Source: Metamycoplasmataceae bacterium (GTDB taxonomy: Bacteria > Bacillota_I > Bacilli_A > Mycoplasmatales > Metamycoplasmataceae). Taken from it: a stretch of DNA of 24,000 bases. The DNA is taken from assembly GCA_965263245.1 (NCBI GenBank), contig CBDHHR010001146.1, positions 782,244 to 806,243 on the forward strand. Reading direction: 5' to 3'. This document shows, in pieces, positions 10,258-22,890 of the stretch. The stretch's first letter is position 1. Each line of letters opens with the position of its first letter. The position numbers were made by a program, and so were the translations under genes. The notes below the pieces were generated by a model, which was given only the letters and a program-made list of their open reading frames with translations, had not been told where the DNA came from and did not search any database.

Positions 10258-13053
10258 TTAAAATCCTCCTTGGGAAACAAAAACAAATAATGATAATCCC
10301 ACTGAACCAATTGTACTTGCAATTCCTATGAGCGAAGTAAGTAAAATTAATCCTTTTCTTGATTTGAATTTTAAATTATTTTTCTTTAATTTTTTCTTAG
10401 ACTTTATTAAACTTATTAATGATGCACCTGATGCGATTGAACCAAGGGCTAAAACTCCTGCTGAAGAAGCTAAAATGTATTTGAAAGTTTTAGAAATAAT
10501 TACTTTGCTATTTAAAACCTTTTTAAAATTTCAATCCACTGAATCAAGCATTTTTGCGATGCCTTCATAATCTAAATTTAAATCATTTATTTTACTCAAT
10601 GATGCTATTAATTCTTCATCAAGTTGTTTTAAAAGCTTTTGTTTTTCTTCTTCAGAAGCACCTTTAAGATTTTTTATTTCATCAACTTTTTCTTTGTGTT
10701 TTAAACGTAAAATTTCAATTCAGATTTTTTTTGTATCTGCTTTATAATCTTCTGATATTTGTTTAAGTTTAATTGCATTTACAAAACTATTTAAAAAATC
10801 TTCATTTTGAAAATAATTTGTTTGTGAATCATTATATAAATCCTGAAATTTTTTTAAATATTTTTTTTCTTCATTTGAATCAGAAAGTTTTATTTTACTT
10901 AGTTGATTTAAACTTTTTTTATGAATTTCGTCAATTTCATCTCTTACTTTATAAATTTCGTCAGTATTTGCTTTTTTAAATATAGGTTTATAAAATGTGT
11001 AAAGTTTTCGAGATTTTGAATTATAAAAACTAAAAGAAACATAAAGAGTATCATCGTTAGCATATCTAAAAAAGTGTTTTCTATATTTTAAATCTAAATT
11101 TTGCGTATCGGTTTCAAGTTCGTTAAGATTTAGAAAAATATCTTCGAAAGTAAAATCAAAATTTATTTGAGGAGCTTGTAAATTCTCAATATTTTCTTGA
11201 ACAAATGAAGAGTTAACTTCTAATTTTTTCTCAATTCATTTTTCCAAATATTGTCTTTGGGAAAAATCATTATATCAGTAGCTTATAATTTCTTCCCAGG
11301 GTTCTTTTAGTTTTTTTAAAGAAGGGTTTCAACCAGCATATTTATCATTTGAAGAAGCATATTTTCAATTTATTTCATTATTAAAAGTAAATTCAATAAG
11401 AAAGTAAAAGAAAGGATTATTTGCAGGATCATCTGGATTATTAAAAGCAATCTTATTAGTTCAAACAAATCTTGGGTAAGAAAGAAGGTTGTCATCAGGA
11501 GGTTGATTGCCATATTTTTTGTATCATTTTCCACCAGGATTTATTTTTTTAAGTAATTCAATTCATTCATCATTTTTACGAAAAATTTTTTCTGGACCAG
11601 TTTGATCTTCAAGACTATCTCATTCATCTAAAAATAAATATTTTGGTTTGTTTTTCGATGAAAAATCTACTAGTTTTTGAAGATCAATAATTTTTGTTGA
11701 AAAAACAAATATTTCCTTAGAAAAAATTTTTTCATCTGTATTTTTTATTAAATCTTCAAAAGTAAATTCTAACTTAATTTTTCTATAATCAATACGATTT
11801 TCTGGAGTGCTAACAGGAGAATTTATAAATTCAATTTTAAAATCTGTTAGATCAAACGAAGGAAATTGAGTTCTAAAACTTTCAAGTTTTGCAAGTTTTA
11901 AACTGTTAAATCCGTTGGTGTTGAACCAATCATACAGTTGTTCTAGATTATTAACTTTATTACTTAAAAAATTTGTTTGCTCGACTTTAAAAACTTTGTC
12001 ATCATTAATTTCGTCTACTAAATCATTAATTAATGATTGAAACTCTTCTTTTGGGTTGTAAAAAAGAACGTTAGGAACTTTTATTCTTAAATTTTTAGTA
12101 ATTGATGCATCCCCTAATTTTAATTTAATACTTCCTTCTAAAAAAACATCAATTTCTTTAAAACCATTACTTTTTTCTCTAACTGCAGATTTACTGATGT
12201 TAATTGAGGAAACTTCAACATCAGAATTATTTTCTATTTTAAAATTTTCTTTTAATATCAATTTAAAATTTTTAAGTAAATTATCATTAACTTCATTAAT
12301 ATCAAGACCATTTGTTCCAAATCTATCAATTTCATAACTATTAAGATTATTTTTAAAACTTCAAGTTTCTGAAGTAATATTAGCAATTAAAGCATTAGCA
12401 AGGGTGTTAATTTCGTTTAATATATTTTTTTTAACATAATTTTTAACAAATTCTTTTAGTCCTAAATTATAAGTGTTGCTTTTGATAGAGGCTTCTCTAA
12501 GTCATAATTCTTTAATTTCGGGAAATTTTTTATTAAAAAAATTAGTAACGTAAAGAACGTCTTTATCACTTGAGTCATTTCACCTTGGTGAAAATTTACT
12601 CATAATGTCTAGAACGTTTTCTTCAATTAAAACAGGAACAATTTCCTCTAATTTTGGAATATCCAAATTTATAAAATGATTTGTAAAATTTGTAACAATT
12701 CTATTAATTGTTTTAGTTCTTATATCTGGTTCATTTAAGCCATCTTCTAACTTATTAACATCGATTAAATTTAATTTTTTTTCAATTTCTTCTTTTATAT
12801 CATAACCATTATCAAAAGCTTCTTTTCATTTAAGACCCAAACTTTCTATATAATTTTCAGGAATATAATCTTTATAATATATTAAAATTGAATTTCAATA
12901 TGCAGATGGTTTATAATTTCCGTTATTAATCAAAGATCTAATTTTTATTAAAATTTTTGCATTAAGAAAATTTAAAAATAATTTATATTCTTCTGAATCA
13001 ATTGTTGTTACATCCCTTTTAAAACGATTATTATAATTTACGTTATATTCCAT
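10258..13053 (-). CDS. F1-like ATPase cluster 931-aa protein, second (distal) paralog; C-terminal two-helix membrane hairpin; function unknown
   Basis: Starts at ATG 13051-13053 (MEYNVNYNNRFKRDVTT...). It is in frame with track fragment 11620..12261. I traced 11190-11620 codon by codon (many TGA=Trp, no TAA/TAG), and the remainder translates in parallel with the proximal copy. It ends ...ILASSAGVLALGSIASGASLISLIKSKKKLKKNNLKFKSRKGLILLTSLIGIASTIGSVGLSLFVFVSQGGF* at TAA 10258-10260. AAAAAGG Shine-Dalgarno. Confidence 0.85.
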
Positions 13054-13135
13054 AATTTAACCTTTTTCAATTGTACCACTTAAAAGAAAAAATTTAATTC
13101 ATTTTTCTTAATTATCTCATTAATTTTTAAAACAA

Positions 13136-13140
<5 letters not shown>
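13054..13140 (-). pseudogene. Relic of the 3' end of the epsilon-like gene, marking the duplication junction
   Basis: Plus-strand attcatttttcttaattatctcattaatttttaaaacaattatt (13098-13140) matches attcattttttttaattatctcattaattgttaaaccaatcatt inside the epsilon-like CDS (about 18941-18984). aatttaaccttttt directly 5' of both ATGs is shared. The relic has internal deletions and no open frame. Confidence 0.7.
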
Positions 13141-16079
<2,939 letters not shown>

Positions 16080-16080
<1 letters not shown>

Positions 16081-18875
16081 TAAAATCCTCCTTGTGAAAC
16101 AAAAACAAATAATGATAATCCTGCTGAACCAATTGTACTTGCAATTCCTATGAGCGAAGTGAGTAAAATTAATCCTTTTCTCGATTTAAATTTTAAATTA
16201 TTTTTCTTTAATTTTTTCTTAGACTTTATTAAACTTATTAATGATGCACTTGACACAACTGAACCAAGAGCTAAAACTCCTGCTGAAGAAGCTAAAATGT
16301 ATTTAAAAGTTTTAGAAATGATTACTTTGCTATTTAAAACCTTTTTAAAATTTCAATCCACTGAATTAAGCATTTTAATAATATCATAATCTAAATTTAA
16401 ATCCTTTATTTTGCTTAATGATGCAAGCAACTCTTCATCAAGTTGTTCCAAAAGTTTTTGTTTTTCTTCTTCAGAAGCACCTTTAAGATTTTTTATTTCC
16501 TTAATTTTTTCGTCGTATTTTGAACGTAAAATTTTAATTCAAATTTGTTTTGTATCTTCTTTATAATTTTCTAATATTTTTTCAAGTTTAAATGTATTTA
16601 CAAAACCATTTAAAAATTCTTCATTTTGAAAATAATTGGTTTGTGAATCATCATATAAATCTTGAAATTCTTTTAAATATTTTTTTTCTTCATTAACGTT
16701 AGAAAGACTTATTTTATCTAATTGGTTTAAACTTTTTTTATGAATTAAATCAATTTCATTTTTTACTTTATTAATTTCTTCAGTGGTTGCTTTTTTAAGT
16801 ATAGCTTTTTCAACTGTATAAGGGGCAAGATTTTTAACTAAATTTTCAAAATTAAAATAAACGTAAATAGTATCATCTTTATATTTTCGATACTCCATTT
16901 TATAAGTTATATCTAAATCATTTGTTATAACGTTAAGTTCATCAAGATTTTCAAAAAGATCTTCAAGATTAATTGTTGGAAATAACGTTAACTTGTCATA
17001 ATTATCTTGAATAAAAGAAAAGTTAAGTTTTAATTTTTCTTTTATTCATTTTTCCATGTATGAACTTTGACTAGCAGCAATAACTTCGTGTGCCATGCTT
17101 CCGTATCAAGATTCTTTTAATTTTTTTAAAGATGGGTTTCAACCTGAATATTTATCATTTAAAGAAGTGTATTTTCAATTTACTTGATTTTCAAAATTAA
17201 ACCTAATTTTTTCACCTTCTTCATCTGAAGCGGGTAAAGTATTTCAGTAAAATTTTGGATAAAAACTAAGATCTTGATCAATTACTTCATTAGAAGAAAT
17301 TCCGTTAGAACCAAAAGAAGGGCCTTTTTTATACCATATACCATCAGGACTTACTAACTTAAGTAATTCGATTCATTCATCGTTTTTAAGAAAAATATTT
17401 TTTGGAATATTATTTTCATAATAAGTTCGAGGATATCAATCTTCACCAAATAAGTATTTTGGTTTATTTTTAGTTAAAAAATTCATTAATTTTTGAAGAT
17501 TAATAATTTTTGATGAAAAAACAAATATTTCATTAGAAAAAATTTTATCATTTGTTTTTTTTATTAAATCATTAAAAGTAAATTCTAACTTAATTTTTCT
17601 GTGTTGAATGATTAAATCATCAAGATCATCAATAATGGGAAAATTTATAAATTCAATTTTAAAATCTGTTAGGTTAAACGAAGGAAATTGAGTTCTAAAA
17701 CTTTCAAGTTTTGCAAGTTTTAAAGTGTGTAGTCCGTTGGTGTTGAACCAATCATATAATTGTTCTAGATTATTAACTTCCTTGCTTAAAAAATCTATTT
17801 GTTCAATTTTAAAGATTTTATCATTATTAATTTCGGTTACTAAATCATTAATTAATGATTGAAACTCTTCTTTTGGGTTATAAAAAAGAACGTTAGGAAC
17901 TTTTATTCTTAAATTTTTAGTAATTGATGCATCCTCTAATTTTAGCTTTATGGTTCCTTCTAAAAAAACGTCAATTTCTTTAAAACCATTACTTTTTTCT
18001 CTAATTGCAGATTTACTAATGTTAATTGAGGAAGTTTCAACATCAGAATAATTTTCTATTTTAAAATTTTCTTTTAACATTAATGTAAAATTTTCAAGAA
18101 AATATTCATCAATTTCATTAATGTGAAAAGTAGTTGTTTCAAAGTTATCAATTTCATAACTGTTAAGATTATTTTTAAAACTTCAATTTTTTGAAGTAAT
18201 ACTACTAATTAAACCGTTAGAAACTAAATTAATTTGGTTTAATATGTTTTTTTTAACATAATTTTTAACAAATTCTTTTAGTCCTGAATCATAAGTTTTA
18301 CTTTTGATAGCAGCTTCTCTAAGTCATAATTCTTTAATTTCAGAAAATTTTTTGTTATAAAAATTAATAACTTGTAAAACATCTTTATTGTTTATTTTGT
18401 TTCATTTTGGTGAAAATTTACCCATGATTTTTAAAACGTTTTTTTCAATTAAACTAGGAACAACTACTTCTAATTTTGGAATGTCTAAATTTAAAAAATG
18501 ATTTGTAAAATTTGTAACAATTCTATTCGTTGTTTTAATTCTTATATCTTGTTCGTTTAAGCCATCTTCTAATTTATTAACATCAATTAAACTTAATTTT
18601 TTTTCAATTTCTTCTTTTATATCATAACCATTATCAAAAGCTTCTTTTCATTTAAGACCCAAACTTTCCATGTAATTTTCAGGAATATAATCTTTATAAT
18701 ATATTAAAATTGAATTTCAGTATGCAGCTGTTTTATATTCTCCAGAATTTATTCAACGTTGAACATTTGTTGAAATTTTTGAATTAAGAAAATTTAAAAA
18801 TAATTTATATTCTTCTAAATTAGATGCTGTTACATCTCTTTTGAACCGGTTGTTATAATTTACTCTATATTCCAT
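16080..18875 (-). CDS. F1-like ATPase cluster 931-aa protein, first (in-operon) paralog; C-terminal two-helix membrane hairpin; function unknown
   Basis: I traced it codon by codon from ATG 18873-18875 through track fragments 17436..18080 and 16539..16898 to TAG 16080-16082; the only interruptions are TGA. There is no N-terminal signal or TM segment. The C-terminus is ...YILASSAGVLALGSVVSSASLISLI-KSKKKLKKNNLKFKSRKG-LILLTSLIGIASTIGSAGLSLFVFVSQGGF*. Its stop overlaps the alpha-like GTG start. Confidence 0.9.
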
Positions 18876-18985
18876 AATTTAACCTTTTTTTGAAGTGTCT
18901 TTTTGCTTGTCTAAAAGAAAAAGCTCTAATTTAGATTCTAATTCATTTTTTTTAATTATCTCATTAATTGTTAAACCAATCATTT
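16080..18985 (-). repeat. Direct repeat copy 1 (~2.9 kb): 931-aa gene plus the 3' end of the epsilon-like gene
   Basis: See copy 2. The 3'-terminal ~430 nt (16083-16510 vs 10261-10690) differ by only a few substitutions per 100 nt by eye. Confidence 0.9.
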
Positions 18986-19304
18986 CCTTTTTAGTTAAAA
19001 TTTTAATTTTGTGTTTTAAATCTCTTAAATTCATTTTTTTTATTCATGAATTATCTAAAACATTTTCAAGTTTAATGTCGGTTCAAATTATAATGTTTCC
19101 TAACTCATTGGAATAAATTATAGGAAATAATAAAAATAATTTTTTCATTTTTTCATTTTCATCAACCAAAATTAATTTAGCAGCTAGTGGTGAGTGCACT
19201 TCGTTGCTTTTAATTTTTTTACTATAATTTTTAGTAATCAAATATGCTAATTTAATTTTATAGTTAACAGAATTTTCGTATGATACTAATTCTAAATTAA
19301 ACAT
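18879..19304 (-). CDS. F1-like cluster 141-aa protein, probable epsilon-like subunit
   Basis: Track ORF 19083..19304 extends through two TGA codons to TAA 18879-18881. Its size matches F1 epsilon. The N-terminal half is beta-strand-like (MFNLELVSYENSVNYKIKLAYLI...SPLAAKLILVDEN) and the C-terminal half is helical and K/E-rich. Its ATG overlaps the upstream stop by 1 nt. The subunit assignment rests on size, position and published cluster composition, not on alignment. Confidence 0.5.
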
Positions 19305-20131
19305 TATTTAACTCCTCTTTTAGCAATTTGTGACATAAAAACAAGATCTTCAGTGGTTTTTTTTCTAATGTCTTTATTTATCTCTCTTTGTTTTTCTTCA
19401 ATTAATTTATCGATATTTTTTATTGAATTTTCATTTTTTATTAATTTTTCTTTTAAATAGTAAAAACTCTTTTCAATAATCAAAGCTTTGGCAATTTTAG
19501 AAAAATATAAATTTAATAACGTGTTAACACAACTGTTAATTGAAGGATAAAATATTTGTTTATTAATTATTAATTCATCTTTTTTATAATAATTAATGTC
19601 AAGTTTTTCAAGTGGAAAAATGTCTATTTTACCCTTTTTACTTCTTAAAGAATCACATAAAAATGTAATTTTACTTATTTCATCACCTAAGACCATTTTT
19701 GTTAAAAGGTTTCCGATTCCGGTTCCCGCATTAGAAATTTTTTTGCTTGAATAAATTGTTTCGTAACTATTTTTTACAGCGAATTCACAAGCTGCAAAAC
19801 CAACACAAATTAAATAATCATTTTCTTTGTCAAAATCTTTAGAGAGAATTTTGGAAAATTTAAAAACATTTGCTGATATAAGTTCTTTTTCTGGAGTAAT
19901 AAAGACCCATATTTTTCTTTTTTTTGTATTTTTTCGATCGTTTTTACTTAGTTTATATTTATTTTTGATAAAACTTAAGATTTTTTTTGAAACTAGTGCA
20001 ACATCTAAAAATCTTTTAGAAATCTTGTTAGCTCTTTCTAATTTTTGCAAAGTATCAAACTTAGAAATTTCAACAATTTCTTTTAGTCGGTTTAAATTAT
20101 TAATTTGATTAATTTTCTTTTGCTTATCCAT
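19304..20131 (-). CDS. F1-like cluster 275-aa protein, probable gamma-like central-stalk subunit
   Basis: Intact track ORF with an AAGGA Shine-Dalgarno. The length is close to F1 gamma. Long helix-prone N- and C-terminal segments (MDKQKKINQINNLNRLKEIVEISKFDTLQKLERANKISKRF... and ...EKQREINKDIRKKTTEDLVFMSQIAKRGVK) flank a central globular part, as in gamma. No alignment was run. Confidence 0.5.
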   Translation of the reverse strand: MDKQKKINQINNLNRLKEIVEISKFDTLQKLERANKISKRFLDVALVSKKILSFIKNKYKLSKNDRKNTKKRKIWVFITPEKELISANVFKFSKILSKDFDKENDYLICVGFAACEFAVKNSYETIYSSKKISNAGTGIGNLLTKMVLGDEISKITFLCDSLRSKKGKIDIFPLEKLDINYYKKDELIINKQIFYPSINSCVNTLLNLYFSKIAKALIIEKSFYYLKEKLIKNENSIKNIDKLIEEKQREINKDIRKKTTEDLVFMSQIAKRGVK

Positions 20132-20133
20132 TT

Positions 20134-21534
20134 CTATCCTTTAAATTTTGAACCTTCAATTACAATTAAATTATCATTTTCTTTCGAAAGAAGTAAGTGA
20201 TCATAAAGCTTAATAATTGAACCATATTCTAATTTTTCATCAATTAAATCATTGTAAAATTTTTTCTCTTCTCCTGAAAATGGAGAAAAGTTTCATTTTT
20301 TAATATAATCTAAAACTATAAATTTTTTATACTTTTTGTCTAAAAATTTAATAAATTGGTTTTTAAGTGCTAAGGAATAACCAGAAATAAGAGCAAGAAT
20401 TTGGGTTTCATAAATGTGATTTATAACTTCTTCGGTAAACATTTTATCAAAATAAACAAACGTTGCTTTAATTATTGATCTAATGTCAACCGGATTTTCT
20501 TGATTAATTATTTTTTCAAATAAAGCAACTTCATTAAAAACTTTTTTCTTGTTTTTAAAGATGTTAGCAGAAAAAATATTTTTTGTTTTATGAGTTTTAA
20601 TAAACCTATTTTTTCTTTTAGGAATATAAACATTTTCGTATGAAAACTCTGCACTAGGTTTTAAATTTTTATTAAAGTTTAACGAATGATTTATTTTTTT
20701 GACACTAATTTCTTTAATGTTTAATTTTTCAATTAGTTCTTTTTCTTTAAGGGCATCAAGTTTTTGTTGCTGAAACTTTTGATTCATTAAAATATCTTTT
20801 TGGATTTTAATTTCTTCTTCAGCAATGTTTTGTTTAAATAATCTTAATTCAATTTCTTTTTCAGCTTGAAATAATTTATTTTTTTCTATTCTTTTTTGTG
20901 TTTCTTTTAATTTTTCTTCTTCATCAAGAACTTCAATTTTTTTAAGTTTGATTTTATCCTGTTTAATTTCATTAAAAGTTTTTAAAAGTTTTTTCTTAGA
21001 ATCTAACTCTTCGTTTTGAAATTTAATTTCAAGATCAGTTTTTTCTTTTTCTAAATTAGAAATTTCTTTTAAGTTATCATTTTTAAGTTTGATTTTTTTA
21101 AGGTTAATTTTTTTAATTTCATCATCAATTTGTTTTTGGAGAATTTTAGAATCTTTTTTTTGTTTAATAATTAACTCTCTTTTTTTGTTAGTAAGTTCTT
21201 GTTTAGCAAGTTTTATTCTTTCTTTATTTCTTGCTCTTTCTTCTTTAAGAAAAATAAGATTTTGCTTTAATTTTTGGTTTAAATCATCAAATTCTTTTTT
21301 ATACTTAGTGACTACTTCGTTTTCTTTTTTTAATTTTTCTTTTTCGTTTTTTCTAAGAGCAATTTTTAATTTTTTTTCTTCTTCCTTAGCAATTTTTAGT
21401 TGCATTTTGTAATTTTCAATCGCCTTTTTTCTTTCGGCTTTTGCTTTTTTAATTTCTAAATTAGATTTTAACTTTGTTTTAATTTGTTCTAATTTTTTAT
21501 CTGTTAAATTTTTACTTCTTAATTTTTTAAACAT
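20134..21534 (-). CDS. F1-like cluster 466-aa protein: ~270-residue K/E-rich coiled-coil region plus a C-terminal globular domain; function unknown
   Basis: Track ORF 20293..21534 extends past a TGA, traced codon by codon to TAG 20134-20136. AAAGGAG Shine-Dalgarno. There is no hydrophobic segment. The stop lies 2 nt before the next ATG. Confidence 0.85.
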
Positions 21535-22858
21535 TTTTCTCCTTTAAGTTATTTTTTTTGATAATTTGTTTCTTGTTTATTTTCGTTTCTTTGGCGTTAA
21601 AGTTATTTATTCCCATTGTTGTTAACCACCAAGAAACAGAGAGTTTTAATATTAATCAAACCACTGAGGAAATTAAGGTCATGTTTACAAGTTCATTTCA
21701 ACTTAATAAATTATTTAAAATGTCATTTGAAACGTTAAATTGTCTAAACACTCATAAAACAATTATTAAGTTAGAACAAATAAAGATAAACGAAGAAAAG
21801 GAAATTGCTTCGTTAAGACTATCGTTACTACTCTTTGAAGTAACGATAAAAGCTAAAATGTTAATAGCAACGATGGTTGCAATAATTGTTCAATCAAAAT
21901 CAATATAAATTTTGTAATAATATTCAAAATAAAGTTTATTAACTGAAACAAACAAAAACGCTCAGGCAATAACCATTTTTAAAATTTTAAAAGAAGAAAG
22001 TTCACTGTTTCTAAGAAGCGAAAATATTATGGAAACTAAAATACAAATTACCGGAATAAATAAGAAAAACCAACTGTATTCATTAAAATTATCAAACTGA
22101 TAATCTTTTGAAAATCAAATCGTAAAAGGCGTAACCCAAATGATAGACACAAGATAATACTTACTAAAATCTTTATTAAAAGTTAGTTTCTTTTTTGTAA
22201 AATTAATCAAAATAAGACCTTTATAAATGAACGTAAATACAAATAAAAAAATTAACGTAATTAAATATGCTGAATCAGAGTAACTATTAATGTTAATTTT
22301 TTTATCTCCACCTAAAATAAAATGTCTTCTAAGAAAAAAATCAAGTAATACCAAAAAAGTAATTACTAATAAATTATTCATAAAATTATTAATGTTTTTT
22401 TTATAAAGAAAAGGTTGAATTTTTCTTTCAGAAAAACCAATAAAAAGATTTCAAAAAGATAATAAACCAATAATCGGAATTACGACATAATATAATGCGT
22501 TGTAAAAATTTATCCATTCTTTTGGTAAAAATTCATCCATTAAAAAAACTAGTATTGACTGGTATGAAATAAAAATTAAAATTAAAAAAATAATTAAGTA
22601 CTTAGATTTAATTCAAACTAAATTGTAATTTAACATTAAAAAAGAAATTAAGTTGATAACAACCATTACAAACATTATTCATGCTATTTTTAAATAATCA
22701 TTTAAATTATCTTTATTAACGTTGTCAATTAATAAGTAAGTTGATAGAAAAATAGTGTAAAAAACAATTAAATATTTAAAAATTTCTCTAAACACAAAGT
22801 TTTTTTGAAAAACACTAGGTTTGTTATTAATTTGAAAAATTAAACTTTTACTTTCCAT
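21527..22858 (-). CDS. F1-like cluster polytopic membrane protein (about 443 aa, ~12 hydrophobic segments); candidate X0 membrane sector
   Basis: Track fragments 22679..22861 and 22115..22381 share one frame. I traced 22508-22681 and 21527-21601 by hand. About 12 hydrophobic stretches of 17-22 aa were counted by eye. ATG 22856-22858 follows AAAGGAGAGG. The TAA at 21527-21529 overlaps the next gene's start by 8 nt. Confidence 0.8.
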
Positions 22859-22890
22859 CACCTCTCCTTTAAAAATATTATTTTAATAAA

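Follow-up and report, generated by a model that had tools for sequence, protein, structure and literature searches.

The window analyzed here is a 24,000-nucleotide (nt) stretch of DNA from a Metamycoplasmataceae bacterium (assembly GCA_965263245.1, contig CBDHHR010001146.1, positions 782,244 to 806,243 of the forward strand), and the genes in question are two paralogous copies of Protein 5, a large subunit encoded in a gene cluster for an F1-like X0 ATPase. The window is AT-rich (~24% GC), its reading frames are open only if TGA is read as tryptophan, and nearly all of its genes lie on the minus strand. On that strand, in the order of transcription, the cluster consists of Protein 1 (21527-22861; 444 amino acids (aa), 11 hydrophobic segments), a long, cytosolic Protein 2 (20134-21534; 466 aa), a gamma-like subunit (19304-20131; MSC_0622_gamma family, E = 4e-24), an epsilon-like subunit (18879-19304), Protein 5 (copy B, P0002; 16080-18875; 931 aa), an alpha-like F1 subunit (14587-16080; Pfam ATP-synt_ab; PRK07165, 464 bits) and a beta-like F1 subunit (13136-14587; Pfam ATP-synt_ab; MSC_0618_beta, 524 bits), and all seven expected genes are present. 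An eighth gene, copy A (P0001; 10258-13053, minus strand; 931 aa), is an extra Protein 5 copy located after the beta-like gene and before rpmF, and the alpha- and beta-like genes are bracketed by copies A and B. The same seven-gene organization, with 12 TM helices in Protein 1, is known for mycoplasma F1-like X0 ATPase clusters (PMC3369863; PMC12994834), where Protein 5 (MSC_0620 / MMCAP2_0577) denotes the gene intervening between epsilon and alpha, whose product is large and carries two transmembrane (TM) helices at the C-terminus; a role in the peripheral stalk or as an adaptor has been put forward for it, only as a tentative proposal (PMC3369863; PMC12994834). Here we report that the two copies form a mosaic of conserved ends and a strongly diverged centre, and that this mosaic probably reflects domain-specific acceleration of protein evolution after a tandem duplication of Protein 5, with gene conversion acting only locally.

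Both copies are open under genetic code 4, each with 15 TGA codons read as tryptophan and no interruption by TAA or TAG, in agreement with a sequence-only reading of the window that had described two intact paralogs of 931 aa. Between the two proteins (72% identical overall), 365 of 468 positions are identical in the N-terminal segment (residues 1-470; 78%) and 194 of 230 in the C-terminal segment (84%), vs 104 of 219 in the centre (47.5%, with another 27 gapped columns), and the contrast between the centre and the ends is highly significant (Fisher p = 2e-19). The centre spans residues 469-700 of copy A (10954-11649, minus strand) and 471-701 of copy B (16773-17465, minus strand), close to the blocks at 10940-11640 and about 16760-17440 that the sequence-only reading had singled out; the islands of identity named there (NDEWIELLK, WYKK, NWKY.S.NDKY.GWNPSLKKLKE.W and EKWI) and the accompanying example strings were all recovered. 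Measured in 40-residue windows, identity is 0.6-0.95 over residues 1-470, 0.20-0.62 over residues ~480-700 and 0.82-0.98 over the last 150 residues, a profile that is clearly uneven rather than flat. The last 140 residues, which had been noted as highly similar, are identical at 129 of 139 positions (93%), and the ratio of nonsynonymous to synonymous divergence (omega, dN/dS) is 0.16 over the last ~100 codons. Nucleotide identity is 86.5% in the N-terminal segment, 68.8% in the centre and 89.9% in the C-terminal segment, and dS by the Nei-Gojobori method is ~0.23-0.27 in the ends and 0.48-0.51 in the centre. The earlier description of the ends as near-identical does not hold for the DNA, in which 10-13% of the bases differ there.

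When the two upstream regions were aligned, the similarity of copies A and B was found to begin ~105 nt upstream of the ATG. Ahead of copy B it corresponds to the epsilon 3' end; ahead of copy A it makes up the spacer to the beta-like gene, where it stands as a relic of the epsilon-like 3' end at the duplication junction (13054-13158, minus strand), overlapping the last codons of the beta-like gene. Downstream, similarity stops at the stop codon, save for ~20 nt similar to the beginning of the alpha gene. In related genomes (L012, L013 and G001/G005/G010/G024), a single gene of 924-1104 aa with two C-terminal TM helices lies between epsilon and alpha, while L015 has one frameshifted gene at that position. 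No Protein 5 copy was found after beta in L012, L013, L015, G001:C23, G005, G010 or G024; in L012, beta is followed by rpmF and mraZ. As the single copy of the relatives lies between epsilon and alpha, copy B occupies the ancestral position and copy A is the derived tandem copy. The L015 gene (L015:1010-3801) is the closest single-copy outgroup gene, with 46% identity over residues 1-411. It is broken by two frameshifts on a contig with a coverage of 1.95x, and these are probably sequencing errors, the alternative being a pseudogene.

A sister genome, L006 (a 988-kb ENA contig), contains three Protein 5 copies (L006:9856-16044), and comparison with it, as the sequence-only reading had recommended, recovered both types at corresponding positions and in an orthology topology. 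In what follows, the window copies are also denoted W_A and W_B, and the L006 copies L6_c1 (B-type), L6_c2 and L6_c3 (both A-type; c2 and c3 for short). W_B and L6_c1 are 83% identical, W_A and L6_c2 81%, and the further A-type orthologue is 79% identical; synonymous differences at identical residues amount to ~14% between paralogs and ~12% between orthologues. Because the orthologues (83% and 81%) are closer to each other than W_A is to W_B, the A/B duplication must predate the split of the two species, and because it is older than speciation, change on the internal A/B branch can be separated from later change. Besides an epsilon relic, the 512-nt spacer between c2 and c3 contains one of the 3' end of beta (94% identical), which shows that a second, younger tandem duplication took place in L006.

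The sequences from the two species were then used to compare the age and the rate of evolution of the centre with those of the ends. Quartet-informative sites supported orthology in 168 cases, grouping by species in 32 and the third tree in 19. In maximum-likelihood (ML) trees of the N-terminal remainder, the centre and the C-terminal part, W_B and L6_c1 were joined each time with a bootstrap support of 100%, the internal branch lengths being 0.09, 0.405 and 0.099, respectively; as both ends show the orthology topology, they have not been homogenized since speciation. On the A/B branch, fixed synonymous changes per site number 0.071 in the centre and 0.057 and 0.073 in the ends, and at residues invariant in all five sequences, fixed synonymous differences reach 2.7% in the centre and 2.4-2.8% in the ends. 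A centre 3 times older than the ends was rejected (P = 0.0008), and one 2 times older was borderline (P = 0.054). Fixed replacement changes per site on this branch are 0.107 in the centre vs 0.033 and 0.038 in the ends (p = 2.5e-10), that is, a density ~3.3 times higher. The proposed check of dN/dS thus gave an omega on the A/B branch of 1.51 in the centre (95% bootstrap range 0.80-3.39) vs ~0.55 in the ends, and the ratio of nonsynonymous to synonymous changes also differs between the two (Fisher p = 0.023). With synonymous depth equal and replacements alone enriched in the centre, the mosaic appears to be mainly a product of faster central protein evolution and constrained ends, and not of segments of different age.

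Gene conversion nonetheless left a clear trace. Over codons 54-118, the nucleotide distance between W_A and W_B is 0.03-0.10, while that between W_B and its orthologue L6_c1 is 0.22-0.25. The ML tree of this tract joins W_A with W_B at 100% bootstrap, a run of seven consecutive species-grouping sites lies within it (permutation p = 1.4e-4), and the GENECONV-type check suggested earlier returned a significant fragment there, a run of 15 matching polymorphic sites (p = 1e-4). Within the tract W_A remains near L6_c2 (0.06-0.10) but W_B lies far from L6_c1, which points to A as the source and B as the recipient: the tract in copy B (18522-18716, minus strand) was overwritten by A-type sequence, and the homologous stretch of copy A (12700-12894, minus strand) is the likely donor. 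A weaker signal occurs at codons 271-330. Conversion is real but local, being confined to codons ~54-118 of copy B. The idea that it homogenizes the ends therefore stood for this tract (and, more weakly, for codons 271-330) and was largely refuted as a general explanation for the window pair, given the fully supported orthology trees and the equal synonymous depth.

The centre is rich in aromatic residues (16-20% F/W/Y), and its core motifs N.EW..LL, NW.Y, KY.GW and Q..Y.E.WI..KL are retained in the outgroups L015 and G002 at 30-43% identity. AlphaFold 2 (AF2) models, built from a 12-row alignment, give the centres of both copies a matching pattern of strand-strand-strand, helices and strand-strand-strand, so that the structural check of the two central domains ended in the same predicted secondary structure; the predicted local distance difference test (pLDDT) is 64-85 at residues ~591-690 of copy A and 73-86 at residues ~601-700 of copy B. 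From this shared pattern and the motifs kept, the centre would be folded in both copies, and the divergence would affect mainly loops, indels and residues outside the core. The sole hydrophobic 19-mers in either protein belong to two helices at residues 860-927, which form the C-terminal membrane hairpin (copy A, 10273-10476; copy B, 16095-16298; both minus strand, by hydrophobicity), the most conserved part of the protein. The loop of this hairpin is polybasic, 10 of its 18 residues being K or R.

A course of events may be proposed from these observations. The duplication would have copied ~105 nt of the epsilon 3' end, the whole Protein 5 gene and perhaps ~20 nt of the alpha 5' end, and would have placed this unit after beta shortly before the split from the sister species. 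The N-terminal helical region, and above all the C-terminal coiled helices and the hairpin, have since stayed under purifying selection, while the centre (residues ~470-700) would have passed through a burst of replacements and loop indels with its aromatic core motifs and predicted fold kept. Relaxed constraint, positive selection or both may have caused the burst, and conversion would have acted locally, on codons ~54-118 of copy B.

Several points weigh against this reading. The counts were made by parsimony and the Nei-Gojobori method rather than with a codon likelihood model, and the central alignment contains indels, for which 27-43 columns were dropped. The omega of the centre is not significantly greater than 1 (binomial p = 0.33), and a McDonald-Kreitman-type contrast of the A/B branch with later changes gave p = 0.11; as omega is not significantly above 1, neutral relaxation is inseparable from positive selection, which is suggested but not proven. 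The AF2 models have a low overall pLDDT (56 and 54 for the two copies), and a Foldseek search of the PDB returned no match below E = 0.04 for them. In the window pair, synonymous differences at identical residues amount to 18.3% in the centre vs 11.6% in the tract-free ends (p = 0.07), which would allow a centre up to ~2 times older. Moreover, the younger pair in L006, c2 and c3, is 97-100% identical in the ends and 75-83% in the centre, with synonymous differences of 10.1% in the centre vs 4.1% in the ends (p = 0.006), and conflicting site patterns are found in the A-type centres (codons 635-680, for example, group W_A with c2). This pair probably has homogenized ends or a mosaic centre, and homogenization of the ends probably does occur in the family.

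The last of these points would be expected under concerted evolution, in which an old duplication is dated correctly by the centre alone, the N- and C-terminal parts having been kept alike by recurrent gene conversion. The conversion tract and the weaker cluster at codons 271-330, the higher dS of the centre, the synonymous excess of the window pair and the pattern of c2/c3 all lend themselves to this explanation, as does the fact that the A/B identity of the centre (~40-47%) is as low as its identity to the outgroup L015 (39-43%). Fixed A/B synonymous differences, however, occur at the same density in the ends as in the centre, the data reject a centre 3 times older, and outside the short tract both ends return the orthology topology with full support. 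The A/B pairs within L006 show no central excess of synonymous differences (centre vs ends, 11.8% vs 14.3% and 16.3% vs 14.2%; 11.8% vs 14.9% when tracts are removed from the ends) and no conversion fragment by the GENECONV-type test (p = 0.25-0.37). An age difference between the centre and the ends is thus not consistent across the window and sister-genome pairs, and for the window pair concerted evolution is largely refuted by the synonymous density and the trees; we regard it as unlikely.

Alternatively, the extra A-type copy may be drifting toward loss, the divergence of its centre marking only the onset of decay as selection relaxes, without any new function. After the species split, the A-type centres did evolve faster (dN 0.19-0.25, omega 0.52-0.78; omega 0.90 for c2/c3) than the B-type centre (dN 0.098, omega 0.50), whose B-specific loops were kept in both species; the omega of the internal branch is compatible with 1, and a promoter and terminator scan, uninformative in this AT-rich DNA, found neither a separate terminator nor a convincing promoter for copy A (69 sites vs 62 expected, no terminators). 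Decay is nevertheless difficult to reconcile with A-type copies that have kept their full length (918-931 aa), with neither stops nor frameshifts, both here and in two related assemblies, or with the renewed duplication of an A-type copy in the sister genome. Every comparison of A-type orthologues gives an omega below 1 (orthologue comparisons range over 0.15-0.52, with 0.78 for the centre of W_A vs L6_c3), and strong purifying selection acts on the ends of the A-type copies (C-terminal omega 0.19-0.20). Changes polarized with the L015 outgroup are roughly symmetric (B branch, 8; A branch, 4; a further 18 could not be polarized), and the predicted fold of the centre is retained; decay of copy A is therefore quite improbable. 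Replacement of one copy's centre by a cassette imported through recombination from a diverged allele, in another strain or species, is highly improbable, for although the A/B centre is as diverged as from L015 and the A-type site patterns are mosaic and conflicting, its synonymous depth equals that of the ends, both central types and their type-specific indels occupy the same positions in the sister species (so that an import would predate speciation and yet be invisible at synonymous sites), a search of 1.84 billion representative proteins gave no candidate donor, and no database sequence is closer to either centre than its own orthologue.

Accelerated central evolution of a duplicated Protein 5 thus remains the probable explanation. 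The suggestion that the centre is under diversifying or subfunctionalizing selection fits the data much better than that of converted ends, although positive selection as such was not demonstrated (omega 1.5, range 0.8-3.4). Both copies look functional, as had been argued from the letters alone: the open reading frames are intact, orthologues lie at the same positions in L006, the orthologue omega is below 1, and the same secondary structure is predicted for the two centres. The central domain may be a module that specifies a partner or substrate, with the ends docking on shared motor and membrane parts, and the paralogs may be alternative adaptors or form a hetero-oligomeric stalk of one F1-like motor. 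For the latter an analogy exists in the b and b' peripheral-stalk subunits of cyanobacterial and chloroplast F1Fo ATPases, which are ~150-180 aa in length, have a single TM segment and lack a globular central domain. Like the Protein 5 copies, b and b' constitute a membrane-anchored, elongated helical stator whose gene underwent duplication inside the ATPase operon, neither copy being lost; unlike them, they have no homology to Protein 5, and a heterodimer in the present case would rest on this analogy.

The orientation of the protein in the membrane presents a conflict. According to the positive-inside rule, the polybasic loop of the hairpin is expected on the cytoplasmic side. With a cytoplasmic loop, the 860-residue N-terminal part would face outside, and this conflicts with the absence of a signal peptide: no N-terminal signal peptide or TM segment was found, the maximal Kyte-Doolittle value of any 19-mer in residues 1-60 being 1.09 in copy A and 0.06 in copy B. 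For a canonical relative, trypsin protection pointed to a cytoplasmic location of the bulk of the protein (PMC3369863). Scans of the whole proteins and of their N-terminal, central and C-terminal pieces against Pfam and NCBIfam found nothing beyond sub-threshold matches to DUF1542 (P0001 785-824, E = 7e-4; P0002 781-826, E = 1e-4; 20-23 bits vs a cut-off of 24.3). DUF1542 is a helical repeat of Gram-positive surface proteins, and the match falls in the long helices before the membrane hairpin. A HMMER search of the 1.84 billion representative proteins yielded only 7 matches, which belong to the same small family or cover the C-terminal 230-265 residues of Protein 5 in related metagenome-assembled genomes, and a word-index search recovered the sister-genome copies alone.

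The cluster as a whole is related to, but distinct from, the canonical Type 3 clusters. On models with curated cut-offs of 570 bits (MSC_0618_beta), 520 bits (MSC_0619_alpha) and 414 bits (NF005523/PRK07165), the beta-like subunit falls below the first with its 524 bits, and the alpha-like subunit lies below the second (422 bits) and above the third. Type 2 clusters are defined by an N-terminal extension of 200-300 aa in beta, which is lacking in the 483-aa beta of the window; the latter aligns only to positions 228-696 of the MMOB1670 model (370 bits). The betas of 40 relatives can be sorted by score into a canonical Type 3 group (>570 bits), a 513-559-bit class that includes the window genome, and long Type-2-like forms. 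In the beta tree, this window class (window 13136-22861, L012, L013, L028 and L030-L033) is a clade with 94% ultrafast bootstrap support, sister to a group that contains the canonical Type 3 betas together with the beta of a short cluster in G001:C5. Protein 2 is 350-499 aa long in the window class vs 165-186 aa in canonical clusters, and Protein 5 is 924-1104 aa vs 690-789 aa; Protein 5 of the window class has no N-terminal hydrophobic segment, while three of the six canonical ones do (G013, G007 and G004). The short cluster (L029; G001:C5:10600-24304) is a second, compact F1-like cluster in a congener, with a Protein 5 of 313 aa that has two C-terminal TM helices, a Protein 2 of 155 aa and a beta of 445 aa on a long branch. 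Protein 5 is evidently very plastic in size.

No NCBIfam match to the MSC_0620 family was found for copies A and B at E <= 0.01, and an hhalign comparison of 11 long with 6 canonical Protein 5 sequences aligned only 24 columns, with a probability of 50%; in a protein-language-model atlas, MSC_0620-family clusters ranked first (score 0.78), which counts as a lead and no more. Since only position, architecture and this weak lead tie the 931-aa proteins to MSC_0620, they are best called positional and architectural equivalents of Protein 5, and not members of its family. Shared with MSC_0620 / MMCAP2_0577 are the site between epsilon and alpha in a seven-gene cluster, the large size, the two TM helices near the C-terminus, helix-rich ends with a mixed alpha/beta middle, and very fast evolution between species. 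Copy B has both the position and the hairpin, whereas copy A has the hairpin but sits after beta; the window proteins also differ in their length of 931 aa, vs 690-789 aa, and in their number, there being two copies of which only one has the canonical position. A signal peptide has been reported for MMCAP2_0577 (PMC12994834), whereas the window copies have no N-terminal hydrophobic segment. MMOB1650, from the Type 2/G1 gliding cluster of Mycoplasma mobile, is likewise comparable in its position in the cluster, its large size and its two C-terminal TM helices; its sequence is unrelated to MSC_0620, and a signal peptide has been reported for it as well (PMC12994834).

Canonical Type 3 clusters were tied to antibody cleavage by the MIB-MIP system only in 2026 (Berlureau et al.; PMC12994834). 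While the canonical cluster works with MIB-MIP, the genus of the window has no detectable MIP protease: the MIP model NF045841 gave no candidate in the genome that holds the window (94.9% complete), nor in the two further genomes from its genus, MIB not being included in the search. As PF01732 and NF045841 gave no match in control genomes either, a search with relatives of the family was used as a control. The MIP family was not found in any of the 7 searched genomes of the window class (G000, G001, G002, G005, G010, G022 and G024), and of 24 further genomes from the bacterial family, 12 gave a match (E <= 0.001). Among 13 genomes with a canonical Type 3 beta (>570 bits), 12 had a MIP match, G004 having none. 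With no MIP detectable in the genomes of the window class, these motors cannot be partners of MIB-MIP and must have at least one further function.

Upstream of the ATPase cluster, in the order of transcription, lie a fragment of an FAD-synthase gene and rpsO, and downstream of the cluster and copy A lie rpmF, mraZ, rsmH, an FtsA-like gene, ftsZ, an amino-acid permease gene, ileS and lspA. The source assembly (G000) comprises 17.75 Mb in 1146 contigs, with the mollicute chromosome on a single contig of ~1.04 Mb (C1146); being far larger than one such chromosome, it must be a mixed or host-associated assembly and not a clean mollicute genome. Several public sequencing runs contain 65-87% of the words sampled from this locus. 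The congener G002 has at least two Protein 5 copies (L003 = G002:C84, L004 and L005); its assembly is interrupted within the C-terminal hairpin sequence that they have in common, and the second copy is not positioned after beta. In a 665-aa fragment on G002:C84, the central module has undergone an internal tandem duplication, each of the motifs N.EW, NWKY, GW and SQ..Y.E being found twice.

F1-like X0 ATPases are derivatives of rotary ATPases whose membrane sector and mechanism are poorly understood, and Protein 5 is their least understood subunit. The window cluster belongs to a sister clade of the Type 3 clusters that is distinguished by its long Protein 2, by a Protein 5 lacking a signal peptide and by genomes in which no MIP is detectable. 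It represents a variant, specific to this lineage, of a system that is known but still little understood, and is interesting rather than revolutionary. With two Protein 5 copies in the window genome, three in the sister genome and at least two in the congener, it is conceivable, though we offer this only tentatively, that a clade without MIB-MIP has diversified the specificity of its motor by amplifying Protein 5 rather than through duplication of external partners, the centre recognizing and the ends docking in what would be alternative adaptors or a hetero-oligomeric stalk. A duplicated Protein 5 in which one domain diversifies is in any case a natural experiment, pointing to which part of the protein may confer specificity and which parts are structural.

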